Shown one piece after another: positions 7,620 to 42,778 of a stretch of DNA of 64,000 bases. How positions within the stretch are numbered: position 1 is the first letter of the stretch; every line of letters starts with the position of its first letter. Below the pieces are notes generated by a model. The model ran no database searches. It was not told where the DNA came from and saw only the letters and a program-made list of their open reading frames with translations. The translations under genes and the position numbers were made by a program. The stretch is from Euryarchaeota archaeon UBA557. Lineage in GTDB: Archaea; Thermoplasmatota; Poseidoniia; Poseidoniales; Thalassarchaeaceae. Where the stretch lies: assembly GCA_002503285.1 (NCBI GenBank), contig DARI01000013.1, positions 8,337 to 72,336 of the forward strand, in the 5' to 3' direction.

Positions 7620-8441
7620 ATGAATAGTGCGATTTTGTCCTCAAAAAGAGTAATTGTTTTAGGGGCATTATTGATGTTTATGGCAGGTACTGGTCAAGCA
7701 ATTCATAGTGGCGTTGGAGGGGATGCAAATAATCAAGGAGAAGTGGCGATTGCTGGATGTACTTGCCACGCATCTGAACCAGATAATTCTGTAACGGTAA
7801 TACTTGATTCGGTGCCATATCATTATTCATACGGCGTAAGTTATAATATGGAAATTCAACTCATAGGAGGCCCAGAAATACTAGTTGGAGGTCAATCAGG
7901 AGGGTTCGCTCTAAGGGTCAGTAGTGGAACCCTAGAACCAGGAATAGGATATGAAAATTTAATTCAAAATTGGGAAAATGACCCATCAACACTTACACAT
8001 ACTTCGGCAGGATCTAAAGTTGAAGATAGGGCATGGCATATAATTTGGAATTCACCTGACGCTATGGAAGACGATACAACGATTACTTTTTGGCTAGCAG
8101 GAAACTCAGTAAATGGTGATAAAATCCCATCATCATTAGATAGGTGGAATAGATTAAGCGTGACTATCGAAGAAGGAGAAGATAATGGAAAAACTAGGAC
8201 CATATTTTCTGGCAATGGAGACATTAATCCTCCTGCCCCAGTAACTGATGAAATCGATTTGCACCACATGGGTGCAAAGTTAAGAGCACATTGGCTAGGA
8301 TTGCTAGGATTTGGTGCGGTGATATTAGTAATAGTATTTTGTGGTTTGTTTTTAAGATATGGATTTTCAAGACATTATGAAGGACGCAGTAATTTACTCA
8401 AATTGAGAATAAAATATCTCAGAAGGGGTGATCAACTTTGA
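7620..8441 (+). CDS. Exported, C-terminally membrane-anchored protein with a G-C-x-C-H motif; first gene of the Rieske/cyt b operon
   Basis: An N-terminal signal-like segment (VIVLGALLMFMAGTGQA) is followed by AIAGCTCHASEP. The body is beta-rich (GGFALRV, THTSAG, WHIIWNSPD, FWLAGNSVNGD). There is one C-terminal TM (WLGLLGFGAVILVIVFCGLFL). GAGG lies 8 nt upstream of the ATG. Confidence 0.6.
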   Translation: MNSAILSSKRVIVLGALLMFMAGTGQAIHSGVGGDANNQGEVAIAGCTCHASEPDNSVTVILDSVPYHYSYGVSYNMEIQLIGGPEILVGGQSGGFALRVSSGTLEPGIGYENLIQNWENDPSTLTHTSAGSKVEDRAWHIIWNSPDAMEDDTTITFWLAGNSVNGDKIPSSLDRWNRLSVTIEEGEDNGKTRTIFSGNGDINPPAPVTDEIDLHHMGAKLRAHWLGLLGFGAVILVIVFCGLFLRYGFSRHYEGRSNLLKLRIKYLRRGDQL

Positions 8442-8887
8442 AAGATGACGTCGTCATGAGATTACTACGAGATGTTAGTCTCGGAAAGGTATCTGTTGAA
8501 GAAGCCAGGGAAGCACTAGAAGGCATTGATATTTCAGAAGAGAATTATGTAAGGGCAGTTGATCATGGAGTATTTAATATGCCGAAACCGGGAACCATAG
8601 TAAGGGCCAGTATATCGCCCTCTGGCGATTCTTGGTTGATCATCCTAGTAGGATTATGGGGCATAGTCTGGACATTATTTTGGGGAGGATCATTATCATA
8701 CGGATTATACAATCATTGGAATCAACAAATGCTTGCATTTGATTTAGCGATGACCTTGTTGACTATCATAATCATGGGAATCGTGTACCTAAAATATGTT
8801 ATGCCAGACGTAGTAGTTGTAAAGCACAGAAGAAACAAATACATAACAAGGAATGATCCTGAGGCTTGGAAAAAATACGAGGCATGA
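8438..8887 (+). CDS. Small membrane protein: soluble N-terminal helical segment plus 2-3 TM helices
   Basis: The ORF overlaps both flanking genes, giving an operon layout. The hydrophobic segments are WLIILVGLWGIVWTLFWGG and LAFDLAMTLLTIIIMGIVYL. The track start is TTG; an ATG lies at 8456. Confidence 0.5.
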   Translation: MKDDVVMRLLRDVSLGKVSVEEAREALEGIDISEENYVRAVDHGVFNMPKPGTIVRASISPSGDSWLIILVGLWGIVWTLFWGGSLSYGLYNHWNQQMLAFDLAMTLLTIIIMGIVYLKYVMPDVVVVKHRRNKYITRNDPEAWKKYEA

Positions 8888-9735
8888 CCATGGCTAGAAG
8901 ATTCAAATTACGTCCTTTACCTAATGACTCCAATGATAATAAAGAATCACTAAAGATGATAGATCGAAGGGAGTTTATGAGGCTTTCATTTAATACGGCC
9001 GCCGGACTAATCACAGTGGCAAGTATCGGAAGTGTTGGTTTCGCATCACTATTAATGGGACAACCAGAGGCAGATGGAGGAGATACGGCAGTTAGGTTTT
9101 GGGTTCCTTCAGGAGCAGAAGATACGGCTTGGTTTGGAGATCGCCATCTTGAGCCTATGAGTTACAGCGCATTTCAGACTGCAGCTGCCAATACCAAAAC
9201 AGGAATGATAGGTGCTCAAGGAGTCTGGTCAGGATTACCTGTTAACGTAGTTTATGTTCCTCATGAAGAAAATAAAGACTTACCCCTAGTACCTGATAAA
9301 CCAAGATTTCAATACCTGGAGGGTTACGATTTAGGAGGAAAATATGTTGGTTCGGGAAGAGAAGTAGAAGATGATTCAACATATTCCACATTATCAATTC
9401 ATGACAATATGATAATAATATTTTCAAGATGCCCTCATCTCTGTTGTATACCGGGATGGCAATTAGTAACCAATAATTACACAGGAGATACTTGGGCATC
9501 AGGAGGAACGGATTCTGGAGGCGATAAATTATTTTGTATCTGCCATTCCAGTAGATTTGATCCAACAGCGATTGAGAAAAATAGCATGGGAAGAGGAGTC
9601 CCATTTGATTTCATTGGAGTAAGAAGAACTGGTGGGCCTGCACCTAATGGAATGCCCTTAATCCCGTTTGTAGTAAATGGAGATATTATTGAGGCATTAC
9701 CGGATTTTAAAGACTGGTATGCATATTGTGGTTGA
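8866..9735 (+). CDS. Rieske [2Fe-2S] protein with a twin-arginine signal
   Basis: The Tat-like motif is DRREFMRLSFNTAAGLITVA. Rieske box I is CPHLCC (C-x-H-x-x-C) and box II is CICHSS (C-x-C-H-x-S), with both disulfide cysteines present. The start is uncertain (ATG at 8884 or 8956). Confidence 0.85.
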   Translation: MEKIRGMTMARRFKLRPLPNDSNDNKESLKMIDRREFMRLSFNTAAGLITVASIGSVGFASLLMGQPEADGGDTAVRFWVPSGAEDTAWFGDRHLEPMSYSAFQTAAANTKTGMIGAQGVWSGLPVNVVYVPHEENKDLPLVPDKPRFQYLEGYDLGGKYVGSGREVEDDSTYSTLSIHDNMIIIFSRCPHLCCIPGWQLVTNNYTGDTWASGGTDSGGDKLFCICHSSRFDPTAIEKNSMGRGVPFDFIGVRRTGGPAPNGMPLIPFVVNGDIIEALPDFKDWYAYCG

Positions 9736-9746
9736 GGTAGATAAAG

Positions 9747-10613
9747 ATGATTCAATTTTGGTTCTTATGGCTTTTTATTGCAATAGTAGTTGTCATCGTA
9801 GCATTTACTTTACGAAAAGAAAGGGACGATATGCCCAGAAAGGACATATTAAGGGCAGTAGAAAGTAATGCTAGCAATATGGGTTTAGCCGAAAAATTAT
9901 TTTTATGGGCTTTTTCATGGTTAGATACGAGATTTAGAATACAAGATTATTGGGGGATGAGCAGAGATGCATTTCATAGCGTTCACAGGCAGATGCCCCT
10001 TACTCATGCAGAAAAATATAAATTGAGGATTATTTGGTATTGGTACCCACTTTATTGTTTGGGCGGTATTTCATTTTTAGCGTTTATAATATTGGTAATT
10101 ACAGGATCTATACTTGGCCTTTATTATGTACCAGGAGGAGAAGGTGATCCGACTCCTGCATACAGTAGCCTCGAATTTATTATGACTACACTACCATTTG
10201 GATATATAATAAGGTCGATTCACCATTGGACAACTCATTTTATGGTTGCAGCAGTATTCTTACACATGTGTAGAGTTTACTTTACTGGAGCATATAGGAA
10301 TCCTAGAGAATTAAATTGGTTAATAGGAGTTGCATTGATGTTCTTCACAATATTCTTTGGATATTCTGGATATTTGCTCCCCTGGGATAGTTTGGCATTT
10401 GGGGCTGCTACTATTGGAATAAATATGGCAACATCCACTCCTTTAATTGGAGAATGGATGGCTAACATACTATTTGCAGGGTCCACATTATCTGGACAAA
10501 CAGTAACTAGAATGTACTTTTTACATGTCTTTATATTACCAGTCCTAGTAACCGCTTTAATATTAGTTCATTTATTCATAGTTTGGGTTCAAGGGATTGC
10601 TGAACCGCATTAA
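9747..10613 (+). CDS. Cytochrome b6-type subunit (four-helix cytochrome b N-terminal half) with an extra N-terminal TM
   Basis: The product is colinear with plastid and cyanobacterial cytochrome b6: LYCLGGISFLAF..., IRSIHHWTTHFMVAAVFLHMCRVYFTGAYRNPRELNW, GYLLPWD, TVTRMYFLHVFILPVLVTALILVHLF, ending ...QGIAEPH. Both haem-ligand histidine pairs are present. GAGGT lies upstream of the ATG. Confidence 0.85.
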   Translation: MIQFWFLWLFIAIVVVIVAFTLRKERDDMPRKDILRAVESNASNMGLAEKLFLWAFSWLDTRFRIQDYWGMSRDAFHSVHRQMPLTHAEKYKLRIIWYWYPLYCLGGISFLAFIILVITGSILGLYYVPGGEGDPTPAYSSLEFIMTTLPFGYIIRSIHHWTTHFMVAAVFLHMCRVYFTGAYRNPRELNWLIGVALMFFTIFFGYSGYLLPWDSLAFGAATIGINMATSTPLIGEWMANILFAGSTLSGQTVTRMYFLHVFILPVLVTALILVHLFIVWVQGIAEPH

Positions 10614-10624
10614 GAGGTATTTAA

Positions 10625-13408
10625 ATGGGATTAATAGATAGATTTGGAAGGATAGCTGATACATATGTCAGCGAAAGGGACCATTTAATTGAAGCGGAAC
10701 AAGAACGAAGAAGAGTTTTTGTAGGCCACTCTTTTTGGCCTACAGAAGTATTAAGAGATACAATAATCCTAGCCAGTATGGTCATGGTAATATGTTTCTA
10801 TTCATGGATTGTTCCTCCACCCCTGCATAGTGCTGCAGATCCATTTGCTCAAGCGGGATTTGTATTTCCGGATTGGTATGTATTATTCTCATACGGATAC
10901 CTACGATGGGGCGAATACCTACCTCAGTACACAATTCCAGCAGGCCCAATTGGTGATTTCTTTGGTCAGCCATTTATTTATTGGAATGCAGCATGGTGGG
11001 GCGCGGCAATAACTGGCATCCCAGTAGGAATATTGGCCCTACCTCCATTCATAATAGGTAAAAGAGAAAAAAGAGGCGTTGAAGATCCTTGGTTTGCTAG
11101 TGCAGGAGCAGCTTATTTAGCACATGTATGGTTTATTTCCGTATTCTCCATAAATATATTCTTAGAATTATATGCAAAAGATTTGACCAATTATTGCTTT
11201 AAAGATTCTCACGATTATTTCTTCTGCGGCCGACAGGCTCCTTGGACTGCTACGATATTTAATGCCATTCCTTGGATATTATCTGCCTTTTTCTTATTTG
11301 TGATTTTATATTTCGTCACAAGAAAATTTTTGCTAAATACGATGGGTGCTAGAGTTACTCCATCGCTCGGAAAACAAGTCACAATAGGTACCATAATTAT
11401 TACAGTACTTATCTCAACTGTAACTTGGCCGATATATGAAGGCGGGTTTTGGGATTATGGAGGTTTAGGTGCAATGGATGATATCTCACAATTAGATGAA
11501 ATGCGAGACCAGCCACAAGATACATTAGTCCAATATGGTCAAGGAAATGTTTGGGATACATGGGAAGATGAATGTTTATCAAATGAAGAAAGTTTCGGTC
11601 TAGGAGTCTGGGAAAACATAAATCCAGAAGATTTTGAAGAATGGTGCGTGATACCTGCATCTAATTGGATAGACTGGTCCATCTATCAACCGACAAAGTT
11701 CACTTTAATTGATTATTCTGGCGTCAATGGGCATGCAGATTATAACACTGGACAAAATCAAGCATTTTCAGAAATGACATATGTCGGAAATTCTGATGAA
11801 ACAGAAGTAAGTATTTCATCTTTCGAATCTTTTACAGTGGAAGATTTTGGTGTAAGCGAATTGCCCACCGATATTGGATGTAATTTTAGAACAAGTACAT
11901 ACGGAGCAGGAGATCATCAGCAGACAGTATATTTAACTAATTCAATTAATGAAGAAGTTTGGAGAATGAAAGGGGAAACTTGTTCACTAGAAACAATTTA
12001 TCTTAATTCAGGAGAAACATACACAATCTATTTTGAAACAACTTCAAATTCAGTTAATGAATCAATTACAATGATTACAGATTTTTCAGCTACGGCATAT
12101 CAACCATTATTATTGGCAGAAGATGGGACAGCCCTAATCAGATCTTCCAGTATTTTAACAGTGGATGAAATGAAAGAACTATCAATAGAGAATCCAACTT
12201 ATCATAAGAATCCCAAGAGTCTGGATGCCAAATTAATATACTCATTATTCATACCTTGCTTAGGAGTCGGGGCGATGGTCTTTATGTTAATGAGAAGTAT
12301 GGCAAGGGGATATGAATGGGAAATGAACAAATGTTATGGCTGTGATCTTTGCGATGATGCATGCCCCGTAAGGTTGTTTAATGCAGGAGATAAATTAAAT
12401 ATAATTTATAATACATGGAATAATGAAGATGATGGAGTTCCCCTATATTCTTGTTTGACTTGTAGTGCATGTACAAATGCCTGCCCTCAATTAGTAGATT
12501 ATGATTCATATGTAGATATTCGAAGAAATTTGATTGTAGGAGGGCCCCCTGCAGCTGAGATACCCCATACAGTACTGCAAGCAGTACTGGCCGCCGAGGC
12601 GGACGAGGATGAAGCATTTATTCCTACAGCTGATTATCCAATAGATTCCAATATTGGCTATTATCCAGGATGCGTAGACTACATAGATCAAGAAATGGTA
12701 TTTAGCCATGTAAATGAAGGTACCATGAATCTTGGAGAAACAACTACTGCAGCATTCACGCTATTCGAAGAGTTAGGGCAAGATGTTACTTATTTAGGAA
12801 GGGATTTCTTGAAATGTTGTGGTCACGACCAAAAGTGGCAAGGATTATCAGAAGTATTTGAAAAGCTAAAAGGATATAATCAAAAGAAAATTGGGGAAAG
12901 TGGAATTGATACATTAGTAACATCATGTGCCGAATGTTTCAGAACCTTCGCATTAGATTATGAATTAGAAGACATGAAGGTTATGCATACAACCGAATTC
13001 TTGACTGAAAATGGATTTGACATGGAATTAAAAACTGAGGATGACATAACAGTAACTTACCACGATCCTTGCAGAATTGGTAGACAAATGAATTTGTATG
13101 ACGAGCCAAGAAACTTAGTAGAATCAATTGAAGGAGTGTCTTTAGTAGAGATGGAACATAATAAAGAAGACGGATTATGCTGTGGAGTTTCCAGTATGAT
13201 GTCATGCAATGAAAACAGTAGAGGTTTACGACTTCAAAGGTTTGATGAAGTTAAAGCCACAGGTGCGGATATCATGCTAACAACATGTCCAAAATGTGTA
13301 AGTCACTTTGAATGTTTAAAATTTGAGGGTGATCCAAGACATGATTTTGAAATATTAGACGTAGTCAGTTTCTTAGCAAGGCAAGTAAATGCAAAAAATA
13401 AAGTTTAA
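10625..13408 (+). CDS. Fusion: b6f subunit-IV-like (cytochrome b C-terminal) membrane domain, ~270-aa exported acidic domain, a TM, then a cytoplasmic HdrD/GlpC-like 2x[4Fe-4S] + 2xCCG module
   Basis: The N-terminus reads FWPTEVLRDTIILASMVMV...AADPFAQAGFVFPDWYVLFSYGYLRW, the PEWY-type ef-loop of subunit IV. The C-terminus has CYGCDLCDDACP and CLTCSACTNACP, two CxxCxxCxxxCP motifs. These are followed by YYPGC...KCCGH, YHDPC...LCCGV and TTCPKC, i.e. two CCG domains. GAGGT lies upstream of the ATG, 11 nt after the cyt b6 stop. Confidence 0.8.
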   Translation: MGLIDRFGRIADTYVSERDHLIEAEQERRRVFVGHSFWPTEVLRDTIILASMVMVICFYSWIVPPPLHSAADPFAQAGFVFPDWYVLFSYGYLRWGEYLPQYTIPAGPIGDFFGQPFIYWNAAWWGAAITGIPVGILALPPFIIGKREKRGVEDPWFASAGAAYLAHVWFISVFSINIFLELYAKDLTNYCFKDSHDYFFCGRQAPWTATIFNAIPWILSAFFLFVILYFVTRKFLLNTMGARVTPSLGKQVTIGTIIITVLISTVTWPIYEGGFWDYGGLGAMDDISQLDEMRDQPQDTLVQYGQGNVWDTWEDECLSNEESFGLGVWENINPEDFEEWCVIPASNWIDWSIYQPTKFTLIDYSGVNGHADYNTGQNQAFSEMTYVGNSDETEVSISSFESFTVEDFGVSELPTDIGCNFRTSTYGAGDHQQTVYLTNSINEEVWRMKGETCSLETIYLNSGETYTIYFETTSNSVNESITMITDFSATAYQPLLLAEDGTALIRSSSILTVDEMKELSIENPTYHKNPKSLDAKLIYSLFIPCLGVGAMVFMLMRSMARGYEWEMNKCYGCDLCDDACPVRLFNAGDKLNIIYNTWNNEDDGVPLYSCLTCSACTNACPQLVDYDSYVDIRRNLIVGGPPAAEIPHTVLQAVLAAEADEDEAFIPTADYPIDSNIGYYPGCVDYIDQEMVFSHVNEGTMNLGETTTAAFTLFEELGQDVTYLGRDFLKCCGHDQKWQGLSEVFEKLKGYNQKKIGESGIDTLVTSCAECFRTFALDYELEDMKVMHTTEFLTENGFDMELKTEDDITVTYHDPCRIGRQMNLYDEPRNLVESIEGVSLVEMEHNKEDGLCCGVSSMMSCNENSRGLRLQRFDEVKATGADIMLTTCPKCVSHFECLKFEGDPRHDFEILDVVSFLARQVNAKNKV

Positions 13409-13683
13409 TTAAATGCGAAATATGCTGAGATTAATGATAGTATAGCATTTAATAAAATTCCTATCAATGTGAGTTTTGCTACTTGTTTATTTTGATAACC
13501 TAGTGCTGTTAACCACAAGAATAACCCTATCAAGCCGCCGCATGCAAATGATATCCATGCAGCCTCTAAACTCAAGAATAACATCATAAAAAGCCAAATG
13601 AATACTCCTTGAAATAATGATAATAGAGATAAGGGATTTAAAAAATATTTCTTGAGATCATCCATAGACATCCGAGGTAACAC
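13405..13683 (-). CDS. Small hydrophobic membrane protein, function unknown
   Basis: The 92-aa ORF has three hydrophobic helices. It is convergent with the fusion gene, and the stops overlap by 4 nt. Confidence 0.4.
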   Translation of the reverse strand: MLPRMSMDDLKKYFLNPLSLLSLFQGVFIWLFMMLFLSLEAAWISFACGGLIGLFLWLTALGYQNKQVAKLTLIGILLNAILSLISAYFAFN

Positions 13684-13702: not shown

Positions 13703-14080
13703 TTGATAAAGGAAGGGCATCTGAAGTTAAACGAAGGAGCATTAAGAGTGACGAATCGTGACGACTTGACCGTGAGGAGAAATTCTCAACAAAGAAGAAT
13801 CAGGATGATGATGAATGCTGTTAAATCTGAAGAAAGAGCGAAACTAAAAGGCGGCCCTGAAGCTGTAGCATGGGTAAAAGAAGAATTATGCATTGGTTGT
13901 GATCAATGCACAATTGTATGTGATGATGATGCAATAGAAATATATCATACTCCTTTAAAAAGCCCAATAATGAACGTAGATAATAATAAAAAAGCAAAGG
14001 TCTTGAGAGATCCCTGTACAGGTTGTAAGTTATGTGTGTTGGCTTGTCCAACTGATGCGATAGTAATGATAGATAGGTGA
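13703..14080 (+). CDS. 2x[4Fe-4S] ferredoxin
   Basis: The cluster motifs are CIGCDQCTIVCDDDAI and CTGCKLCVLACPTDAI. The track start is TTG; the likely ATG is at 13805 (MMMNAVK...), giving about 92 aa. Confidence 0.75.
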   Translation: MIKEGHLKLNEGALRVTNRDDLTVRRNSQQRRIRMMMNAVKSEERAKLKGGPEAVAWVKEELCIGCDQCTIVCDDDAIEIYHTPLKSPIMNVDNNKKAKVLRDPCTGCKLCVLACPTDAIVMIDR

Positions 14081-14084
14081 AATT

Positions 14085-14378
14085 ATGAGTGAAAAAGATC
14101 CATTGAGATTTGGAGCAGAATTTGGTCCAAAGGGCATAAATAACCCTAGCGGTGTTTCATTATCAACATTTAAGACATTAGTATGGGTATCAAATCTTGG
14201 CGGATTAATATTATTTGCGATAGGATTAGAGTTAATGGTAGTTCAACAATTATTTGGAATTGGATTATTATGCCTAATTGCAGGCGTGATCATAGCATTA
14301 TTTCCATCAAATTATGAAATTACAGGAATGGAGGAGTTATCTGATTCCATTAAATTGAATACTCAAGGTGAGGAGTAA
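14085..14378 (+). CDS. Small membrane protein (two TM helices)
   Basis: GGTGA lies upstream of the ATG, which is 4 nt after the ferredoxin stop. The hydrophobic segments are LVWVSNLGGLILFAIGL and LFGIGLLCLIAGVIIALF. Confidence 0.4.
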   Translation: MSEKDPLRFGAEFGPKGINNPSGVSLSTFKTLVWVSNLGGLILFAIGLELMVVQQLFGIGLLCLIAGVIIALFPSNYEITGMEELSDSIKLNTQGEE

Positions 14379-21898: not shown

Positions 21899-21967
21899 AT
21901 TATATCATCCTCATTAAATATGGCTAAAGCTGATTAGTTGTAATGTTTGCGGGGAAAGAAGTAGAGA

Positions 21968-22085
21968 GGCACAACGATGAACGTTCCCGTGGGCTTTCGC
22001 ACCACAGTACAAGAAACAACGCAGGAGGGCTTGACTTCCGGGTTCGATATGGGACCGGGTATTACCCCTCCGCTATGGCCGTGCT
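21968..22085 (-). rRNA. rrf: 5S rRNA
   Basis: The reverse complement reads GCACGGCCATAGCGGAGGGGTAATACCCGGTCCCATATCGAACCCGGAAGTCAAGCCCTCCTGCG...CGTTGTGC. The terminal helix is GCACGGC/GTTGTGC. The ends are accurate to a few nt. Confidence 0.85.
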
Positions 22086-22106
22086 CAACTCTATCTTCGA
22101 ATTTAT

Positions 22107-22129
22107 GAATTGATATGCACTGTTGGACA
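22107..22129 (-). other. 3' half of the pre-23S processing helix (trailer)
   Basis: The trailer RNA TGTCCA-ACAGT-GCATATCAATTC pairs with the leader GAATTGATATGC-C-TGGACA at 25080-25098, as a perfect 12 bp plus 6 bp. Pairing continues inward (GAGG, CACATA, AGG blocks) toward the mature 23S ends. Confidence 0.7.
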
Positions 22130-22149
22130 GAGGCCCACATAGGCCTGGA

Positions 22150-25060
<2,911 letters not shown>

Positions 25061-25595: not shown

Positions 25596-27233
25596 TTATT
25601 CAGATTCAGCGTTTATAAATTTCTCATTACTTACACTGCTATCTCTGTACACGTACGGAGTAAGAGCTACGCTGATGATTGCCATTGCAGAAATAATTAT
25701 TATTGGATATGCAGTTGAAGGCCAACTAATTGTATATCTCACAAGGCAGTAAACCGTTGCTATCATCACTGTAAAGATCATCATAGGAAATCCAGTTCGG
25801 AAAAATGTATTAAATGAAATATCATTTCCTGACTCTTCTGCCAATCCAGCTGCAACTACGTTAGCAGATGCCCCTATGATGGTCCCGTTTCCTCCTAGGC
25901 ATGCACCTAGAGCCAATGCCCATGCTAACGGCCCCAATGGTAGTCCAAGTAGAGGATCTGATGCAAGTTCTATCACTACTGGAACCATAGTAGCAGTATA
26001 TGGAATATTATCTATAAATGCTGAAGCAATAGCTGAGACCCAGAGTAGTAAAAGAACTGCTATCATCAATCGATTTTCTTCTGATGTTTTGGATATTGCA
26101 TCTGATATCATTTCTGCTATCATCTCTATTAATCCCATGAATTCTAAACCGTGGATCATGATGAACAACCCAGCAAAGAAAATAATTGTTGTCCACTCTA
26201 CTGAATCTAATTGCTCTTCAACATGATGTGGCGAAGTTATCAAAAGCATTGCAACAGCGCCCCCCAACGCAATTGTGGCTACTGATAATAATGGATGAGG
26301 GAAGGCAGAATGAGCAAAAAATAACAATATTACAATCATAAGAATTATTCCTGATTTAATTAATAATTTCTTATCCTTAACGCCGTATCTGAGCCTCAAT
26401 AAGTCAATATTTCTGTGCCTCTCGCCACTCAAACCAGAATTATCAATTTTCCTTAAAATCCATAAAGAAGGAATCATACAGATAACAACAGCAGGTGCTA
26501 CATGAATAATGAAATCAGTAAATCCAATACTGGAGCTTTCAAGGACGGTCCCACTTAGGGCCTGCGCAGACAATTGAGCCCCAATTATTATATTTGGCGG
26601 GTCTCCGATTTGTGTAGCGGCACCTCCGATGTTTGAAAACATAACTTCTGCGATTATTAGTGGCACTGGCTCTAAATCTAATACTTTTGAAATTTGAATT
26701 GTCACTGGAACAATTAATAATATAGTAGTTACATTGTCTAAAAAGGCAGAGAAAACTGCAGTAATTATACACAAAATAAATGATAAGCGCCAAATTGACC
26801 CTCCGCTCTGAGCATATGCTTGGACGGCAGCCCATTCAAATATTCCAGTTTTAGAGAGAATATTAACAATTACCATCATGCCAATTAGAAGTCCAATTGT
26901 TTCCCAATCTATCCAAGTCATAATTGTAGATAAATTGGGCCCATCGCCGATAACGTGAAGAGAAATTACCGCTGCAATTCCGCCTACTGCTGCGGCCAAT
27001 GCACGGTGAACAATCTCAAATACTATTAAAGTATAAACTGCAGTTAAAATTATTATTGCTAATGGGACGCTCCATTCAGGCATATCTGGAGCTACCCAAC
27101 TAGTATCTGAGCTTGCAGCTTTAACGGGCGATATAGAGATAATTGCACTCATGAACAATATAAATGGTTGAATTAATTTCGATGTCGCCCGGCCCCGAAC
27201 TACTAGTTGCATGAGCCCGCCTAGAACAATCAT
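25596..27233 (-). CDS. ArsB/NhaD-superfamily ion/anion permease
   Basis: The polytopic product carries the family-typical AFLDNVTTILLIVPV and GGAATQIGDPPNIIIG segments, repeated in the second half (SAFIDNIPYTATMVPV, LGGNGTIIGASANVV). The start is uncertain. Confidence 0.75.
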   Translation of the reverse strand: MIVLGGLMQLVVRGRATSKLIQPFILFMSAIISISPVKAASSDTSWVAPDMPEWSVPLAIIILTAVYTLIVFEIVHRALAAAVGGIAAVISLHVIGDGPNLSTIMTWIDWETIGLLIGMMVIVNILSKTGIFEWAAVQAYAQSGGSIWRLSFILCIITAVFSAFLDNVTTILLIVPVTIQISKVLDLEPVPLIIAEVMFSNIGGAATQIGDPPNIIIGAQLSAQALSGTVLESSSIGFTDFIIHVAPAVVICMIPSLWILRKIDNSGLSGERHRNIDLLRLRYGVKDKKLLIKSGIILMIVILLFFAHSAFPHPLLSVATIALGGAVAMLLITSPHHVEEQLDSVEWTTIIFFAGLFIMIHGLEFMGLIEMIAEMISDAISKTSEENRLMIAVLLLLWVSAIASAFIDNIPYTATMVPVVIELASDPLLGLPLGPLAWALALGACLGGNGTIIGASANVVAAGLAEESGNDISFNTFFRTGFPMMIFTVMIATVYCLVRYTISWPSTAYPIIIISAMAIISVALTPYVYRDSSVSNEKFINAESE

Positions 27234-28554: not shown

Positions 28555-31500
28555 TTAATTCTTGTTCTTTTCCCACCACATGTGACCATATGCATTCCAT
28601 TGTTCCATAGTCCAGCCATCAGGTAATCCAGTAAGTGGAAGAGGGGGCCCTCCAGGTGAAGAGTGTTTCAAACTTGGCAGCGACGAAGATAAGGCTGCAT
28701 TTATTTCGTCTTGAGAAACTGTGCCTGACAATGCTTCTCCTGATAATGATGTGTCCAGTGCTGAATTTCTTCTTTCAGAAATATTTCCTGATGACAATGC
28801 AGAACCTGCAGGGATTAATTCTTCATCAGAATTAATGGAAGTAGATTTTCTCATATTAAATCCAACGAAACCCAAGGACATTAAAATCAAAATAAATATT
28901 ATTGGGATAACCCATGATGGCAGGCCTGCATCTTCCATGAACTCTGAAAGCCCTCCATTTCCTGTTTCTCTCGCCATACTTACCTTGAGTAATAATGAAG
29001 AATCTGTTATTGACATTGATTCTGAAGAAGAGTTTGCAAATAGTGTAAATTGTTTAAGTCCAATTGAAGATTTACTTACAGGAGATGCCCCTGCCGATAG
29101 ACTAACTTCCCCTCCGGGAGAAATTTGATTAATTTGTGTTTTATCCAATGATATTTCCCATCCTTCTAATTGATTAAACTCGATATTGACATTAGTCATT
29201 ATATTACCATTATTTTTTAGAATGATATCAAAAAATGAGTCCGAATTAATTCCTATATCTTCAATTTGTATTATTGGAGATTCCAAAGTTATCCAAATTG
29301 ATGGTAAAACTGAAATTGATATTTCCACAGTATAAGTTGCTATTTCTCCGTTAGGCGTGGTAGCTTGAATAATCACAGGAACTTTATCGGATAATTTACC
29401 TTTTTCTAAATTTGGAGGTAAAGTTATACTTATTTGTACTACTGCTTCTCGGTTCATATCCATAGTAAAATAATTACCTGATAAAAATCCAACTTCCCAA
29501 GAATTAGGAACTGTCCCTATACTTATCGTAATATCTAAAGGTACATTTCCAGTATTTTTAATTTCAATCTCCGATATTCCATCCGTGCCCAAGGCTATGT
29601 CTAAATCATATGATTCAGCCAGATCTAATGCCGCTATTTCCTTCACGATTAATTTTGTGCCGCTTCTTTCCAATATCCCTTCATCAGACGTAGTTTTTAT
29701 AGAAATTGTATTCATATCTCCCTTTTGAGAAGATAAGGGAATAATAGTTTTTATTATTATACTAGAATATTCATTGGGGGCCAGTACAATAGAAACTGAA
29801 TTAGTGAGCCCAATGGGAATTGATTCAGAACTTTCATAAACTTGTAAAGGCCAAGTATTTACTGATGATAAAACTTGAATTTCGAAACTAATTTCAATAT
29901 TTCCTAAATTTGATATAACCAAATTTGTAGAAATAGTATCTCCATTTGTAACTGCCCTCGGTTCGGCAATTTCAACAGTTTCAAATTTATTACCTTCATC
30001 ATCAGATAAATATGTAGAAAACAGTTTACTTTCCAAAACTGTTATCATTGCCCATTCACTAGTGTACATTGAAGAATCTGATATTGAAGTAGTAGTGCAC
30101 ATTATTTCTTCAGTAACTCCCGCTAATGGCTGATAGTCTAATGATTTAGGCACTTTCACCCTTATTGGAAGAGGGAGAAATTGCAATCTATTTAATGGAT
30201 CAAGTACTAGTTCGGAAGATTCAGTATTTCCGATATGAATTAACCATCTATTTGCTGTTTCACAACTTACCTCATATTGAGTAGGGCCGTTACCAATATT
30301 TCTTATTGATAAAGAAAATAATCCAAATTCACCAGGCTTCGCAGATAAATCAGTTTCTCCTGCCACTACTGTAAATAATCCTTCAACTGTATCCACTATA
30401 GTTGTAAGTCTTATTGAGTGAGAAATAGTAGGTGCATTCTTATCAAATAGTGTCAAATCAGTAACATAATCGCCTGGCAATGAATATCTTGCCAATGCGT
30501 TATCAGTAATATCTGCATCTCTATTTGATAAGTTTAGAGATAATGTGTATTTATCTCCTTCTTGACCTGATGGGTTTAGAATCCAGGGGCCTGACTCATT
30601 CAAAATTTTCCACCATTCATCTTCTGGTTGATTTAATATTCCTTGTTCACTTATTATCTGTAATGGTGAAATAGATAAATCAACAGTTATTTGAGACGTT
30701 CCTTCATTTTTAATTTGCAATTTAAAAACTATTGAAGTATCTTCCCTAGGATCTAAATTTCTCGTTTTTGCATTATTTAATTCCTCGAGGTTATTTGGAA
30801 TTGTGCCGTTTTCAAATAAAGGTATGATTCTTACTCCTATTTGAGAAACATTAAATGAGTAATTAAAAATATTATTATTTACACCTTCTAATTCATCATT
30901 AAATTCAGATACCTCAGATAAAGAATCAAGTCTTAACTGAATTACATGTTCGCCGGTTGTATCAAAGGAATGAGTAAATGACAAAGAGGCAATTTGACCT
31001 CCTTCAAGAGACGCCATTTGTGATGATTTAATTAAGTCATTAGTAGTCAAATCATGGATTGATATTGAATAGTCGCCCGTAGGAAGAGAAGCCCTATTGG
31101 ACCATTTGGCATTTATTGATAGAATATCGCCCTGAAGTGGAGTAGATGTAAATGAGGATATAGAATCTGGAATTATAGATAGATCGGAACCGAATGTTTC
31201 TTCAATAATTCCAGATACTACAAGGGAATATTGTTGAATATTGCCTTTGGAATTTCCAATTTCAAGAGACCATATTCCTTCTTCAGCTGAATCTAATTTT
31301 ATTCTTTCTACATTATTTACATTGTCTGATATGCCGCCTGATGTACTATATCCAGAAATAAAATTATTACCATTATAAATAACTCCACTAGGAGATGTGA
31401 TTCTTAAATCTAGATTATTAACTAATTTACTAATACTTTGATCACTAGTTACGGAACCCTCTCTGTCATTCCAAACTAGAGTTGCATCTAGAGAAGAACC

Positions 31501-33363
31501 TGAAGTAACTTGTAATGTATACAAAAAACTATGACCTGGAGACAATGAACGAGAGTAATCAAATATAGTATCAGAATCAAAATCACCAGATTTAGGATAG
31601 AGACTTTGGCTCAAATTTAGTTGCCCCCAACCTTCAGAAGGGTTTGGAATATTCGATAATCCTAAATCTGTAGCTCCATTTATTAAAATAGCTTTAATCA
31701 AATCTGACCTTGGTTCTGAAATATTAACCTCTTCTCTCAGATATTGCCTGGTCATTGCAGCGGCCCCTGCAACTACTGAGGTTGACATTGAAGATCCATT
31801 TAATGTCATATATAGCGGAGTAATTTGATCGTTGTGAGTTGCAGTAGAACATGATTCTCCAATTGTGAAAGATGCCTCTGCCGCTCTTGCAGAACATATC
31901 ATTACTCCAGGGGCGACTAAATCAGGTTTTATTCGTCCATCTAAAGTGTAACCAGTTGATGAAAAATTATAGACACTACCTGAATCTATACTTGAATATG
32001 CACCGGTAGTTGAAGCGCCAACGGTCAAAACATTTTTTGCAGTCCCGGGAGAGCTGATTCCGGAAGACCCTTCGTCACCGGCGGAAAATAATACTAGGAA
32101 TTTAGGTTGATCTTTGACATAAGAGTCTGCTGAATGTGAGTCTGAGGTATATTCTCCTAGAAGGTTACTAGAGCCCCAACTATTAGTTTGAATTTTCGCA
32201 TCCTTATCCCAGGCGTGTGCGAACATTGAGTAGAGAGAATCCCACCGTGCGAAAATCCCTGAGCTATCCACTTCTAATTGATAAAATATAAATGTTGATT
32301 CCGGTACTACTCCAGTAGTTTTAGAATCACCTGAACCATCTCCCAATAAAGTTGCAGTGACATGCGTTCCATGTCCACTATTAGCATCATCACCGGAATT
32401 GTCGGGGCCGAAATCATTGTAAACAGGATTTCTAAGTCTAGTGCCAAAATCTCCATGATCAGCGTCAAGTCCCGTATCGGAGATTGCTATAACCTCACCT
32501 TCTCCATTCAAAGATCCGCCCGAAAGAGATAGTGCTTCATCTATATTGGATAATATCCTAGCATTGTTATTATGTATTTTTAATGATGAAGAAGGTTCAA
32601 TTTTGAGAATTCTCCCATCCATTGCAAGTATAGGAATTAATGAAGGATTTATACTAGATAATTTACATAATGAAAAATCACATACATCTCTATCTATAAA
32701 ATCATTGGAAACCAAAGAAAGATCAATATTTAATAACTCCAATTCTTCAGGGTTTAGATCGGGAGTAGTCATTATCTGTAAATCGATATTTCCTTCTAAA
32801 GATCCAATAAGCGGAATTAAGTCCTTTGATACTTTCCATGCTATAGGAAATTCACCAATCCATTTTACACTCGAGATTTTTTTAATCTCCTCAAACATCT
32901 CAATTTTATCATCCCCTAATATCCTGATTAAATATGCATCATCCGGAATTATGTCTATAATATTGACATCTTGTTCACCTTCTAGATACTTTGTTAATGG
33001 GATCAAATTTGAACTATTTGATTGTACTATTGCCATCCCACTTCTCAAAAATGAAAAGGGGTCAAATAAGTTTTCAGGCCCTAATGGAATGAAATCTACT
33101 TCTGGGTAGAATGAACCAAATGGAGAATGTATGATTCCTGAGCTTTCAGTTATATCATAAGAAGAATAAACTGCATGTTCGAACTCTGACCATACTTTTA
33201 CAGTTTGTAATTCCTCATTTTCATATTCGATATCATCAACATTTATTATAGTTGCCTGAGATATAAATGAAAGAGGAGTGAACATAAAAATAACGATGAT
33301 GGAAACGGTTACCTTCGTATTCACGTGGTAACCGACTATTGTTTTGCTTTTGACTATTAACAT
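28555..33363 (-). CDS. Giant membrane-anchored subtilisin-like (S8) serine protease with many Ig-like/CARDB-type repeats
   Basis: The product has an N-terminal signal/TM. The catalytic triad context is AISDTGLDADHGDF (Asp), GHGTHVTATL (His) and NGSSMSTSVVAGAAAM (Ser). About 900 aa of beta-rich repeats follow, then a TM (WVIPIIFILILMSLGFVGF) and a Ser/Pro-rich cytoplasmic tail. Confidence 0.85.
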   Translation of the reverse strand: MLIVKSKTIVGYHVNTKVTVSIIVIFMFTPLSFISQATIINVDDIEYENEELQTVKVWSEFEHAVYSSYDITESSGIIHSPFGSFYPEVDFIPLGPENLFDPFSFLRSGMAIVQSNSSNLIPLTKYLEGEQDVNIIDIIPDDAYLIRILGDDKIEMFEEIKKISSVKWIGEFPIAWKVSKDLIPLIGSLEGNIDLQIMTTPDLNPEELELLNIDLSLVSNDFIDRDVCDFSLCKLSSINPSLIPILAMDGRILKIEPSSSLKIHNNNARILSNIDEALSLSGGSLNGEGEVIAISDTGLDADHGDFGTRLRNPVYNDFGPDNSGDDANSGHGTHVTATLLGDGSGDSKTTGVVPESTFIFYQLEVDSSGIFARWDSLYSMFAHAWDKDAKIQTNSWGSSNLLGEYTSDSHSADSYVKDQPKFLVLFSAGDEGSSGISSPGTAKNVLTVGASTTGAYSSIDSGSVYNFSSTGYTLDGRIKPDLVAPGVMICSARAAEASFTIGESCSTATHNDQITPLYMTLNGSSMSTSVVAGAAAMTRQYLREEVNISEPRSDLIKAILINGATDLGLSNIPNPSEGWGQLNLSQSLYPKSGDFDSDTIFDYSRSLSPGHSFLYTLQVTSGSSLDATLVWNDREGSVTSDQSISKLVNNLDLRITSPSGVIYNGNNFISGYSTSGGISDNVNNVERIKLDSAEEGIWSLEIGNSKGNIQQYSLVVSGIIEETFGSDLSIIPDSISSFTSTPLQGDILSINAKWSNRASLPTGDYSISIHDLTTNDLIKSSQMASLEGGQIASLSFTHSFDTTGEHVIQLRLDSLSEVSEFNDELEGVNNNIFNYSFNVSQIGVRIIPLFENGTIPNNLEELNNAKTRNLDPREDTSIVFKLQIKNEGTSQITVDLSISPLQIISEQGILNQPEDEWWKILNESGPWILNPSGQEGDKYTLSLNLSNRDADITDNALARYSLPGDYVTDLTLFDKNAPTISHSIRLTTIVDTVEGLFTVVAGETDLSAKPGEFGLFSLSIRNIGNGPTQYEVSCETANRWLIHIGNTESSELVLDPLNRLQFLPLPIRVKVPKSLDYQPLAGVTEEIMCTTTSISDSSMYTSEWAMITVLESKLFSTYLSDDEGNKFETVEIAEPRAVTNGDTISTNLVISNLGNIEISFEIQVLSSVNTWPLQVYESSESIPIGLTNSVSIVLAPNEYSSIIIKTIIPLSSQKGDMNTISIKTTSDEGILERSGTKLIVKEIAALDLAESYDLDIALGTDGISEIEIKNTGNVPLDITISIGTVPNSWEVGFLSGNYFTMDMNREAVVQISITLPPNLEKGKLSDKVPVIIQATTPNGEIATYTVEISISVLPSIWITLESPIIQIEDIGINSDSFFDIILKNNGNIMTNVNIEFNQLEGWEISLDKTQINQISPGGEVSLSAGASPVSKSSIGLKQFTLFANSSSESMSITDSSLLLKVSMARETGNGGLSEFMEDAGLPSWVIPIIFILILMSLGFVGFNMRKSTSINSDEELIPAGSALSSGNISERRNSALDTSLSGEALSGTVSQDEINAALSSSLPSLKHSSPGGPPLPLTGLPDGWTMEQWNAYGHMWWEKNKN

Positions 33364-40753: not shown

Positions 40754-42778
40754 GTGATATCAATCAGATGGCAAATGACGCTACGAGATAGGGCCAATGC
40801 ATTTATTTTGGCATCACTAATTACAATGATAATTTTTATGCCAATGGCCGTTCAAAGTCAAATTTCCGAAGAATGTTGCAAACAACGAGAATTTGAATTA
40901 TTTTTAATTGGTGAACCTGATGATGGAATATTAACACCATTCTATTCTGAGCTAAATACAGAAGAAGTTGAAGTTGAAGTTACATCATCAATAGGAGGAG
41001 AAGTTAAGATTGCGACATGGGATGTAACTTGGAGGATCGAGGGAGAATATCTCTCAGAAACTTGGGAATTTTCCATACCATACAGGTTACAAGGAGCAGC
41101 CGGTTTTACGCTTAATGCCACATTAGAAGTAAAAATTGGTGGCGATACATACGAAGGGTCAATTCCGACGCCTGAAATATTATTGACTGGAGAAGGTAAT
41201 TTGGAGATACCGGTAGAAGTTGCACAAGGCGATATATCGGAAGGAGATTTAGTAGAAATTACTCTAAGTGTACAGAATTTGGTATTTACAAGCCCTGGTG
41301 AAGATACTGGAGTATTCTTTGTTTGGGGATCAGAAGAATATGATGCTAGCATAAGGGTGAAATTGCCACTCTTAGAAATTTTGATTAAAGACCCGAGTGT
41401 AACTGGTAATTTAGTTTATCTTCCTGTTATGATAAAGTCAGGATTTGAGGGCGACATGTGGTCAAAATCTAATGGGATTGCCAAAGTCCAAAATATAGAG
41501 ATAGGCGAAAGCCCCATAGCGATACTAAGAGATATTGGCGTAGAAGTAACATTTGTTTGGGAAGTTCCGGTCAACTCTGATGGAATTATTAAATTTGAAT
41601 TTGAATTAATCCCTCAACCAGGATTAATTATTAGTTCAAATAAGACTCATGAGATAGTAGTTGGGGAAGATAGTGGACCTGGTGATTGGTACCCAGAGAA
41701 TGAGCCATTGAGAGATGGAGGATCTACAATTGAAGTTGATATCGATACGAAATTTAAGGGAAATTCGATAGAAAAACAAATTTCAATAGAATTTGATGGG
41801 GCAATGTCACAATGGATTAGATGGGGATTGGACAATATTGGAAATAGCACATTAGATTCCAATAGTTGGTGGAAGAATCTTAATTCATATTCTGATTCCA
41901 TAAAATCTACTGAAAAACATAATGGTAAAGTTGATGATTCCGAAATTAGAGCACTAAAAAACCATCTGATAGGCTCTAGATCAGACCTTAGATCATTTTT
42001 TGCAAATGGCCTATACCTAGAGATTGAGTCAATAATTGGCATAAATCCCATAGATTTAGGTCCTACAGAAATAAATATCAATATGGGTGCAACTAGAGCA
42101 TTTAGTTCGGAAGAAATGATAATAACGATTGAGACTTCTTATGCTATTGAAGAAAATCAAAGGCAAATATTAGTTGAGAACTTTATTAGGCCATCATCCG
42201 AACAAATCTGGGATGAAGTTTCTTTGAACATTATGTTCAAAACTAATATGTTGACTGGCATGGGAGACATATATGCAGATGAAATAGACTATAAACTGAG
42301 AAGATGGATAATCATGGAATCAATTAGTATTACTGAAGAAGACATTGATACCGAAATTGAATTCAGAATTGAGTTTGTACCGCCTAGTTCAATTATATTT
42401 AGCCCCCTTGTATCTGCAATGATTTCTGTACTGGCATTATCAGTCGCTTTAGTAATAGGAATGGCCCTAACAAAAAGAAGAGCGAGAGTTCCTACTATGA
42501 TTACAGTATTAGTCTTAGGAGCCTTAGCATTTACAATTTATTGGATGGGGTTACCTTTGCAAATAGTATTAGGAATAGTTTCAACTAGCGTTTTATTAGT
42601 ATTTCCAATCTCATTGGTATCACCAACCTCAAAAACTATTGAAAAAATAACTAATAATGTTGGAGGACCTTATGTCAAATGTCCATCTTGCGGTATTTCT
42701 AATCAAGTTCAGTCTACGGTGAGGCCATTAAGAATACCATGTTCGGAATGTAATAGTATTTTAAGAATTGAAAATTAA
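40754..42778 (+). CDS. Large exported protein with C-terminal TM helices and a cytoplasmic zinc ribbon, function unknown
   Basis: The signal peptide follows the ATG at 40775 (MTLRDRANAFILASLITMIIFMPMAVQSQ). A ~520-aa ectodomain and three hydrophobic helices follow. The protein ends with CPSCG...x17...CSECN. Confidence 0.6.
   Translation: MISIRWQMTLRDRANAFILASLITMIIFMPMAVQSQISEECCKQREFELFLIGEPDDGILTPFYSELNTEEVEVEVTSSIGGEVKIATWDVTWRIEGEYLSETWEFSIPYRLQGAAGFTLNATLEVKIGGDTYEGSIPTPEILLTGEGNLEIPVEVAQGDISEGDLVEITLSVQNLVFTSPGEDTGVFFVWGSEEYDASIRVKLPLLEILIKDPSVTGNLVYLPVMIKSGFEGDMWSKSNGIAKVQNIEIGESPIAILRDIGVEVTFVWEVPVNSDGIIKFEFELIPQPGLIISSNKTHEIVVGEDSGPGDWYPENEPLRDGGSTIEVDIDTKFKGNSIEKQISIEFDGAMSQWIRWGLDNIGNSTLDSNSWWKNLNSYSDSIKSTEKHNGKVDDSEIRALKNHLIGSRSDLRSFFANGLYLEIESIIGINPIDLGPTEININMGATRAFSSEEMIITIETSYAIEENQRQILVENFIRPSSEQIWDEVSLNIMFKTNMLTGMGDIYADEIDYKLRRWIIMESISITEEDIDTEIEFRIEFVPPSSIIFSPLVSAMISVLALSVALVIGMALTKRRARVPTMITVLVLGALAFTIYWMGLPLQIVLGIVSTSVLLVFPISLVSPTSKTIEKITNNVGGPYVKCPSCGISNQVQSTVRPLRIPCSECNSILRIEN

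Follow-up and report, generated by a model that had tools for sequence, protein, structure and literature searches.

The 64,000-nucleotide stretch of DNA analysed here (the window, from contig DARI01000013.1 of the Poseidoniales archaeon UBA557) encodes a single 927-aa protein in which the predicted subunit IV (SUIV) of a b6-type Rieske/cytochrome b complex is joined, through an exported domain and a sixth transmembrane helix, to a cytoplasmic HdrD-type module. We propose, with about even confidence, that this module would act as an Fe-S wire on the cytoplasmic side of the membrane (n-side), linking a cytoplasmic carrier with haem cn and the quinone-reducing (Qi) site and passing electrons inward to menaquinone, so that the assembly would be a complex III and a ferredoxin (or thiol):quinone reductase at once.

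The open reading frame (ORF) starts with ATG and occupies 10625..13408 (+) as a single entry of the ORF listing. Residues 1-270 (10625..11434 (+)) correspond to SUIV, the C-terminal half of cytochrome b, with helices E, F and G and two extra helices, one of them H-like; the PDWY motif of the quinol-oxidising (Qo) site lies at residues 82-85 (10868-10879) and is invariant across relatives. Residues 271-536 (11435..12232 (+)) form the acidic exported middle domain, whose beta-sandwich core (residues 377-492) is encoded at 11753-12100. The chain then returns to the cytoplasm through a single helix at residues 537-555 (12233..12289 (+); hydropathy 2.2), LIYSLFIPCLGVGAMVFML. Residues 556-927 and the stop codon (12290..13408 (+)) make up the HdrD-type module, with [4Fe-4S] motifs at 12332-12367 and 12452-12487 and CCG motifs at 12671-12937 and 13070-13297. 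The original prediction, made from the DNA alone, had placed PDWY, LIYSLFIPCLGVGAMVFML, CYGCDLCDDACP, CLTCSACTNACP and both CCG units at the residues at which we also find them.

The fusion ORF is a real gene. In the assembly collection, 87 index blocks from different samples and sources contain the identical 927-aa protein, and the gene neighbourhood is the same in all 23 contigs with the identical protein that were read (from ENA, NCBI and other sources). Additionally, JGI contigs hold a 98%-identical protein, and orthologues of 926-936 aa form more than 100 clusters with a query coverage of 99-100%, under names that include Poseidoniales, Thalassarchaeum and marine group II/III. The identical protein on many independent contigs, together with the full-length orthologues, excludes a frameshift or an assembly chimera, and the one continuous frame that had been predicted stands. 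Between the MGIIb and MGIIa branches of Marine Group II (MGII), identity is 84-87% in the Fe-S part and 76-79% in the CCG part, about 60% in SUIV and about 30% in the middle domain. The Fe-S and CCG parts are thus the best conserved within Poseidoniales, which argues that the Hdr-like module is under strong selection.

The content of the C-terminal module is that of HdrD, as first suggested, and Pfam, NCBIfam, sequence and fold matches agree on this. Specifically, two [4Fe-4S] motifs of the type CX2CX2CX3CP, CYGCDLCDDACP at residues 570-581 (C570, C573, C576 and C580) and CLTCSACTNACP at residues 610-621 (C610, C613, C616 and C620), are followed by two CCG units, C683/C731-C732-G/C768xxC771 and C816/C852-C853-G/C888xxC891. 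In HdrB, such CCG sites bind non-cubane [4Fe-4S] clusters. Pfam reports two CCG domains (PF02754; E 4.7e-22) and, at residues 566-622, several 4Fe-4S dicluster families; in a comparison of 28-30 family members, the motif cysteines show no or almost no variation. The best solved match is EtfD of Mycobacterium smegmatis (9ojn; sequence E 4e-21, fold E 1e-13), followed by LutA (TM-score 0.76 on the target) and HdrB (TM-score about 0.6). Opposite CTG and CPHC of EtfD, the window protein carries CCG and CAEC, and is therefore Hdr-like at the level of the ligands; membership of EtfD is ruled out by these ligands and by the domain content. NCBIfam ranks TfrB first (109 bits), followed by LdhH, a dicluster protein, TmcB, GlcF, GlpC, DsrK and HmcF, all far below their equivalog cutoffs (109 versus 385 bits for TfrB, 33 versus 400 for DsrK, 39 versus 278 for GlpC), so that the module is an orthologue of none of TfrB, LdhH, TmcB, GlcF, GlpC, DsrK or HmcF. 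In a library of 1.8 billion proteins, the fusions themselves rank closest, and next come archaeal proteins of 310-400 aa that stand alone, carry the annotation HdrD or (Fe-S)-binding protein and are roughly 35-42% identical, from ANME-2, Methanosarcinales, Lokiarchaeia and Borrarchaeum; one of these stand-alone proteins lies within a cluster of CCG, HdrC, HdrB, HdrA-like and MvhD genes.

The N-terminal part had been taken as PetD-like over its first ~230 residues. Pfam run on the N-terminal 290 aa of the fusion alone gave no match, even at E up to 10, and a single-sequence comparison with the solved SUIV of cytochrome b6f was marginal (E 0.04), with PDWY aligned with PEWY. A family profile of the region, built from nine diverse members with the window protein among them, matches helices E-G of solved cytochromes b (E 7e-13) and the SUIV of b6f (E ~5e-7). 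The fusion N-terminus also matches shorter relatives at E 1e-13 to 1e-24, the best-scoring of which, P0128 (543 aa), lies above the PF00032 cutoff (52 bits versus 20.7) and has the precomputed architecture Cytochrom_B_C + Fer4 + CCG; at E up to 10, PF00032 matches eight of the nine members. In the operon, the gene stands directly 3' of the Rieske and cytochrome b6 genes, an order kept in relatives, and no second SUIV gene is present there. Because of the family profile match, the short-form relative that passes PF00032 and the gene order, the fusion N-terminus is, judged from sequence, the predicted subunit IV of a b6-type Rieske/cytochrome b complex. The PetD likeness is therefore upheld through profile and relatives, while Pfam on this part by itself does not recover it.

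Hydropathy places five helices before the acidic domain (residues 46-64, 126-144, 162-180, 214-232 and 252-270) and the sixth after it, in line with the helix count of the original prediction. The fusion thus has six helices (E, F, G, the H-like helix and two more), not three as in the SUIV of b6f; the short forms have four by hydropathy, and the SUIV-type part in the split cytochrome b that haloarchaea have likewise has four (PMC3509893). Between PDWY and the first Fe-S motif, five helices are found in the window protein. Of 11 relatives examined with a coarse hydropathy detector, which overlooks weak helices, six have three helices in this interval, five of the seven full-length short forms among them, and the other five have two, four or five. 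By homology to SUIV, the N-terminus faces the n-side, and the PDWY loop lies on the opposite side (p-side). An odd number of helices between a p-side PDWY and the Fe-S motif therefore puts the Fe-S/CCG module in the cytoplasm. The numbers of Lys and Arg per loop agree with the positive-inside rule (4/17 and 4/19 on the n-side, 1/61 and 3/33 on the p-side), and these two lines of evidence support the n-side position that had been predicted for the module. A conserved cysteine pair lies in the p-side loop 181-213. Directly after the last helix comes the K/R-rich MRSMARGYEWEMNK, and the first cluster cysteine is 14 residues from the helix, a spacing that would place the first cubane cluster at the n-side membrane surface.

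The middle domain (residues 271-536) has a net charge of -37. Structure prediction of this domain, which had been recommended with the original prediction, yielded an eight-strand beta-sandwich at residues 377-492 in the AlphaFold2 model (pLDDT 70-95), with residues 271-376 poorly defined; C419 and C453 are invariant in the alignment of the domain. Foldseek returns generic sandwiches only (p24 GOLD, MAM, viral jelly rolls and subtilisin-associated beta-jelly rolls; TM-score <=0.57), Pfam gives no match to the domain at E up to 10, and a search of it for cofactor or redox motifs found none. A redox or cofactor role of the middle domain was therefore rejected. The domain is confined to Poseidoniales and is missing from all relatives outside this order, short forms included.

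The fusion is the last core gene of an operon with the order choice-of-anchor V protein, DUF7318 protein, Rieske protein with a twin-arginine translocation (Tat) signal, cytochrome b6 and fusion, after which a 2x[4Fe-4S] ferredoxin gene follows. The cytochrome b6-type protein (288 aa; 9747..10613 (+); Pfam Cytochrome_B, E 2e-41) has one extra N-terminal helix, four haem-ligand histidines and the sequence YCLGG. Aligned with solved b6 (E 3e-42), its four histidines are in register and YCLGG falls on Cys35 (FYCLGG of spinach and Mastigocladus), and the CxGG motif of the window protein is a predicted haem cn (or ci) site. Covalent haem cn has been demonstrated only for Bacillus, heliobacteria and oxygenic phototrophs (PMC4122944). 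The Rieske protein (8866..9735 (+), with a start at ~8890 according to gene callers) carries the Tat signal DRREFMRL and the boxes CPHLCC and CICHSS; it matches NCBIfam Rieske_proteo at E 4e-8, below the cutoff, and its position is conserved. No HdrE-like gene is found in the operon, where the partner genes of the fusion are those of cytochrome b6 and the Rieske protein. The ferredoxin (13748..14080 (+); 110 aa as called elsewhere; Pfam Fer4_21, E 6e-13) has two [4Fe-4S] motifs and is RnfB-like. A ferredoxin gene about 400 nt downstream had been noticed before; the gene is there and is a conserved neighbour, and the gap is shorter, 295 nt to a TTG at 13703 or 340 nt to 13748.

At its C-terminus, the window cytochrome b6 has HLFIVWVQGIAEP where chloroplast and cyanobacterial b6 have Arg207 (HFLMIRKQGISGP), a residue that we take to lie near haem cn. 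The HLFIVWVQGIAEP stretch may thus mark a different Qi/haem cn environment.

To place the window protein in a wider family, a profile of the SUIV region was run against one genome per GTDB species, giving 543 confirmed loci, of which 80 were fetched. The fusion is not confined to Marine Group II, and shorter versions occur in Thermoplasmatota and other archaeal metagenome genomes. Four architectures are found. The first is a plain SUIV of 189-356 aa, encoded by Halospeciosus flavus and by many metagenome genomes of Thermoplasmatota and Halobacteriales. The second, from soil and groundwater Thermoplasmatota, joins SUIV to an HdrC-like 2x[4Fe-4S] domain (~430 aa), while the CCG protein has a gene of its own next to it, with a ferredoxin-like ORF behind. 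The third joins SUIV to a full HdrD (543-789 aa) with no middle domain, often together with a giant Big_5-bearing cytochrome b6 and with downstream HdrC/HdrB/HdrA-like or Fer4+MvhD genes. The fourth, at 926-942 aa, is that of Poseidoniales.

Among the Fe-S-bearing operons, 52 of 54 encode a cytochrome b6 with the haem cn cysteine (CxGG), versus none of the 20 plain ones, which have YTLGS or YALGG at this position (YALGG in the unfused loci L005, L012 and L013). Similarly, a ferredoxin-like ORF lies within 4 kb downstream at all 22 MGII loci versus one of 22 plain-SUIV loci; among the other fused loci it is found at eight of 13 by motif and at three more by Pfam.

Two further features of the relatives concern the partner subunits. 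In several sediment and groundwater Thermoplasmatota, the cytochrome b6 of fused-type operons reaches 630-1074 aa (L019 3658-6882, L023, L026 1169-3802, L029 and L022 3-1892), with Big_5 immunoglobulin-like repeats before the b6 domain; in the three loci scanned with Pfam, these number one in L022 and four in L019 and L026. Which subunit has gained extracellular sandwich domains thus differs between lineages, b6 in those archaea and SUIV in Poseidoniales. In an uncultured archaeon (L004/L090, GCA_012974965.1), the operon at L090 5092-13875 encodes a multihaem cytochrome c, a 77-aa protein, a Rieske protein, cytochrome b6, a SUIV-HdrD fusion of 543 aa, and HdrC-like and HdrB-like proteins, and continues with an HdrA-like ORF of 1010 aa (seen in L004), a Fer4 protein and MvhD. 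Here, a Rieske/cytochrome b complex lies within a heterodisulfide-reductase/MvhD gene set, in a host that is probably an anaerobe.

We propose the following course of electrons. The fusion would be the SUIV (PetD-equivalent) of this archaeon's only Rieske/cytochrome b6 complex, and its first cubane cluster would sit at the n-side membrane surface, like cluster D4 of EtfD, which lies ~7 Å from its haem. From there, the Fe-S chain would exchange electrons with the n-side haems (bH, and haem cn on the CLGG cysteine of b6) and hence with the Qi site, by analogy with EtfD and HdrDE. The distal CCG end would meet a cytoplasmic partner, most likely the co-encoded 2x[4Fe-4S] ferredoxin, with a dithiol as the alternative. 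Reduced ferredoxin (or thiol) would pass its electrons to the CCG sites, the two [4Fe-4S] clusters, haem cn/bH and finally menaquinone at Qi, and the quinol would then be oxidised at Qo via the Rieske protein.

Inward flow is favoured because transfer from ferredoxin or thiol to menaquinone is downhill and needs no transmembrane charge transfer, because the ferredoxin is the conserved partner, because EtfD runs inward, and because PDWY points to a low-potential system. In particular, PDWY accompanies low-potential quinone and Rieske proteins (PMC4122944), and the EtfD wire leads inward through CCG clusters, two [4Fe-4S] clusters and haem b to menaquinone in steps of 4-9 Å (PMC13083937). In the passage of Diamond et al. 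(2022; PMC9038741) on hdrD-like and rnfB-like genes beside complex III of Ca. Angelarchaeales, ferredoxin entry is proposed, and for MGII an orphan RnfB and an unusual complex III were pointed out by Tully (2019; PMC6336850). That electrons enter or leave at Qi, as originally suggested, is consistent with everything found, and gains support because the Fe-S module co-occurs with the haem cn cysteine. A narrower version, in which the Fe-S chain would be hard-wired to haem cn at Qi, as debated for chloroplast b6f, and the haem cn cysteine would be kept as the docking point of the Hdr-like module, appears possible to us, if doubtful.

Several observations weigh against the proposed inward wire. 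A neighbour-joining tree of cytochrome b6 gathers the plain operons in essentially one clade, and the associations of the Fe-S module with CxGG and with ferredoxin therefore rest on few independent events; the idea that the CxGG/Fe-S correlation reflects many such events was rejected on this ground. A small mixed clade of the tree includes L008, a Bathyarchaeia metagenome genome whose SUIV is fused and whose cytochrome b6 has YYLGG, with no haem cn cysteine. The ferredoxin matches the NCBIfam rnfB subfamily at E 7e-13, below the cutoff of that family. The full-length AlphaFold2 model (mean pLDDT 64, pTM 0.44) is too weak to show where the Fe-S module stands with respect to the helices. Like catalytic HdrB/HdrD, and unlike the pure electron wire EtfD with its degenerate site, the protein has two complete CCG motifs, so that thiol/disulfide chemistry instead of simple ferredoxin docking stays in play. 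A plain donor:quinone reductase needs no Rieske/Qo machine, and the fusion may hint at a coupling to Qo bifurcation.

The last of these points leads to outward flow, which we consider unlikely. Here, quinol electrons would be bifurcated at Qo, and the low-potential electron would travel via bL, bH/cn and the Fe-S chain to reduce a cytoplasmic disulfide or ferredoxin. Such a course would account for the complete Rieske/Qo apparatus and the invariant PDWY of all members, which are superfluous in a simple quinone reductase, and for CCG motifs as complete as those of disulfide-reducing HdrB/HdrD. The anaerobic relatives with HdrC, HdrB, HdrA-like and MvhD genes directly downstream fit it too, and a similar proposal for anammox Rieske/cytochrome b complexes with NAD(P) oxidoreductase subunits (PMC12954380) offers a precedent. 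However, p-side to n-side electron transfer opposes the membrane potential, and by established thermodynamics menaquinol with a low- or mid-potential Rieske protein, the setting to which PDWY is linked (PMC4122944), would barely reach the potential of ferredoxin. Moreover, an aerobic heterotroph has cheaper sources of reductant, and EtfD, the closest solved analogue, runs inward.

The complete CCG motifs also bear on a thiol:quinone oxidoreductase, a function that we rate as rather unlikely. The protein would then work as a reversed HdrDE in which cytochrome b6/SUIV replaces HdrE; a dithiol or thiol pair would be oxidised at the non-cubane clusters and quinone reduced at Qi, with the ferredoxin as an accessory. 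The ten CCG cysteines are all conserved, the stand-alone proteins most closely related to the module are annotated as HdrD (ANME-2, Methanosarcinales, Lokiarchaeia), with one of them in an HdrC-HdrB-HdrA-MvhD cluster, and a reverse HdrDE reaction into menaquinone has been deemed feasible in ANME-2d (PMC4683180). Yet no candidate thiol is known in Poseidoniales, where the absence of coenzymes M and B is assumed, these archaea not being methanogens. Complete CCG motifs also occur in proteins with no thiol chemistry, such as LutA, a close fold match, and the conserved neighbour is a ferredoxin instead of a thiol-carrier protein.

That mycobacterial EtfD is the top PDB match in both sequence (E 4e-21) and fold (E 1e-13) raises the question of whether the fusion is an EtfD-like oxidoreductase that takes electrons from electron-transfer flavoprotein (ETF) in fatty-acid and amino-acid oxidation and passes them to quinone. 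All MGII families encode acyl-CoA dehydrogenases (PMC6336850), which fits such a role. We regard it as quite improbable, since the protein has CCG and CAEC instead of CTG and CPHC, the ligands of EtfD's linear [3Fe-4S] cluster, and has no NarI-like haem domain, and since no etfAB genes occur in the operons examined or in the annotated parts of the window; the top rank of EtfD may merely reflect that no HdrD, TfrB or GlpC structure is available. Finally, an artefact of assembly or frameshift, or a decaying, non-functional Hdr-like appendage, has a negligible probability given the identical protein in 87 index blocks from different samples and sources, the full-length orthologues in more than 100 clusters, the Hdr-like part as the most conserved region of the protein, and cluster ligands that are invariant or nearly so among 28-30 family members.

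Returning to the proposed n-side wire, a complex III subunit of MGII probably connects a carrier inside the cell straight to the quinone-reducing site, which makes it a candidate route for the re-oxidation of ferredoxin, or of another carrier in the cytoplasm, in these archaea. In the surface ocean, Marine Group II belongs to the most abundant archaea, and descriptions of its respiratory chain have so far gone no further than "non-canonical". The family enlarges the Rieske/cytochrome b repertoire by archaeal members in which an Hdr-like module and the haem cn cysteine travel together, and offers a natural system for asking whether haem cn admits n-side electrons. Electron entry at haem cn has long been argued for chloroplast cyclic electron flow. 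If the narrower version with hard-wiring to haem cn is true, the abundant MGII archaea would run a previously undescribed type of complex III that may serve as a model for haem cn electron entry. For annotation, public records name these proteins "Fe-S oxidoreductase" or "HdrD" and overlook the subunit IV part.

In the open-access literature, we found no account of a covalent SUIV-HdrD fusion, its archaeal spread, its co-occurrence with haem cn or the exported insert of Poseidoniales; the remark on Angelarchaeales in PMC9038741 was the sole mention found there of Hdr-like genes at an archaeal complex III. Open-access texts on Marine Group II gave no mention of HdrD and nothing relevant together with electron-transfer flavoprotein. 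Dibrova et al. list large cytochrome b-domain proteins and assign no function to them, and the haloarchaeal split cytochrome b has been described as having no haem ci cysteine (PMC3509893).

The remaining genes of the operon include the choice-of-anchor V protein (273 aa; 7620..8441 (+)), which matches NCBIfam NF041895 above the cutoff (E 8e-20) and consists of a signal or N-terminal helix, an exported domain and a C-terminal anchor. Its gene has the same position in fused and unfused operons and occupies the place expected for cytochrome f/c1 or a copper protein. Near its N-terminus, the protein has a Cys-His pair (GCTCH here; GATCH, GTGCH or QPGCH elsewhere), which is invariant in the alignment along with ATHT, GGF, VNGD and DxWN. 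As a candidate p-side partner, this protein may take over electrons from the Rieske protein by way of a metal site or of a haem held by a single cysteine. It is followed by a DUF7318-like membrane protein (149 aa; 8438..8887 (+); Pfam PF24002, E 5.6e-5, below the cutoff), which is conserved in the operons of relatives.

On the other flank, a two-helix membrane protein of 97 aa (14085..14378 (+)) has no family match and stands beside the ferredoxin gene, on either strand, in every MGII locus examined. A very hydrophobic 92-aa ORF at 13405-13683 (-) overlaps the stop codon of the fusion and fills the ~300-340-nt gap before the ferredoxin gene. An opposite-strand ORF of 59-92 aa is called in the closest assemblies (L084-L087); both it and the gap are missing in 75%-identical relatives (L001), in which the ferredoxin gene follows after 60 nt.

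Pfam on 20 other ORFs of the window found no ETF, oxidase or Hdr genes nearby. Elsewhere in the window, the 23S (22160-25046) and 5S rRNA genes, which mark the DNA as archaeal, lie together at 21966-25046 (-), and the next gene past the 23S gene encodes a CitMHS-type transporter (25596-27233). No 16S rRNA gene was found in the 64-kb window, and the rRNA genes appear unlinked. Four ORFs match no Pfam family at E up to 1e-5: 51559-57279 (-; 1906 aa), 60887-63793 (-; 968 aa), 46059-48152 (+; 697 aa) and 40754-42778 (+; 674 aa). In a 1602-aa ORF at 28555-33363 (-), a subtilase (S8) domain is the only one found.

Compared with b6f/b6c-type ("green clade") complexes, the window system shares the gene order Rieske, b6, SUIV, the haem cn cysteine, the four histidines and the Qo loop in SUIV. 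Unlike those complexes, its SUIV goes on with two further helices, a beta-sandwich outside the cell, a sixth helix and an Fe-S/CCG module of 370 aa, its cytochrome b6 has an extra N-terminal helix, PDWY stands in place of PEWY, and the operon has no cytochrome f or c1, with the choice-of-anchor V protein at that place.

The module itself resembles HdrDE of Methanosarcinales, in which two CX2CX2CX3CP motifs and two complete CCG motifs likewise lie in one chain attached to a dihaem membrane cytochrome. However, the module of the window protein is covalently fused, its partner is the Rieske/b6/SUIV core instead of the NarI-like HdrE, and its host is an aerobic heterotroph (PMC6336850). EtfD (9ojn; PMC13083937) is comparable as an HdrD-like Fe-S wire, anchored in the membrane and leading to a haem beside a menaquinone site, in an aerobe. 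EtfD differs by a five-helix monohaem b domain of its own at the N-terminus and a disordered tail at the C-terminus, both missing from the window protein, and by a first site, CTG/CPHC, that builds a linear [3Fe-4S] cluster where the window protein has CCG/CAEC.

Among archaea, the complex III locus of Ca. Angelarchaeales (PMC9038741) probably belongs to the same operon family, and the idea of ferredoxin entry is shared; the two sentences given to these genes there do not describe the SUIV fusion or the link to haem cn. Soil Thermoplasmatota loci (L035, L037, L039 and L044), which we infer from sample names to be Angelarchaeales, encode a Rieske protein, b6, SUIV-2x[4Fe-4S], a CCG protein and a ferredoxin-like ORF. 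They are distinct from the window operon in that the CCG protein is separate and no exported middle domain is present.

Two bacterial systems also join a cytochrome b to further redox modules. The "PDWF-FeS" cytochromes b (Kao and Hunte 2014; PMC4122944) are cytochromes b with a Qo-type motif fused to 4Fe-4S, with an MvhD or flavin domain; in contrast to the window protein, they occur in a few bacteria, the fused part is a full-length cytochrome b, the cluster has no Rieske gene and CCG domains are missing. The anammox Rieske/cytochrome b complexes (PMC12954380) likewise combine the core with a cytoplasmic redox module and raise the question of n-side exit or entry. There, in a bacterial setting, the added module consists of a flavoprotein and multihaem subunits on separate polypeptides, whereas in the window protein the Fe-S/CCG module is part of subunit IV itself.

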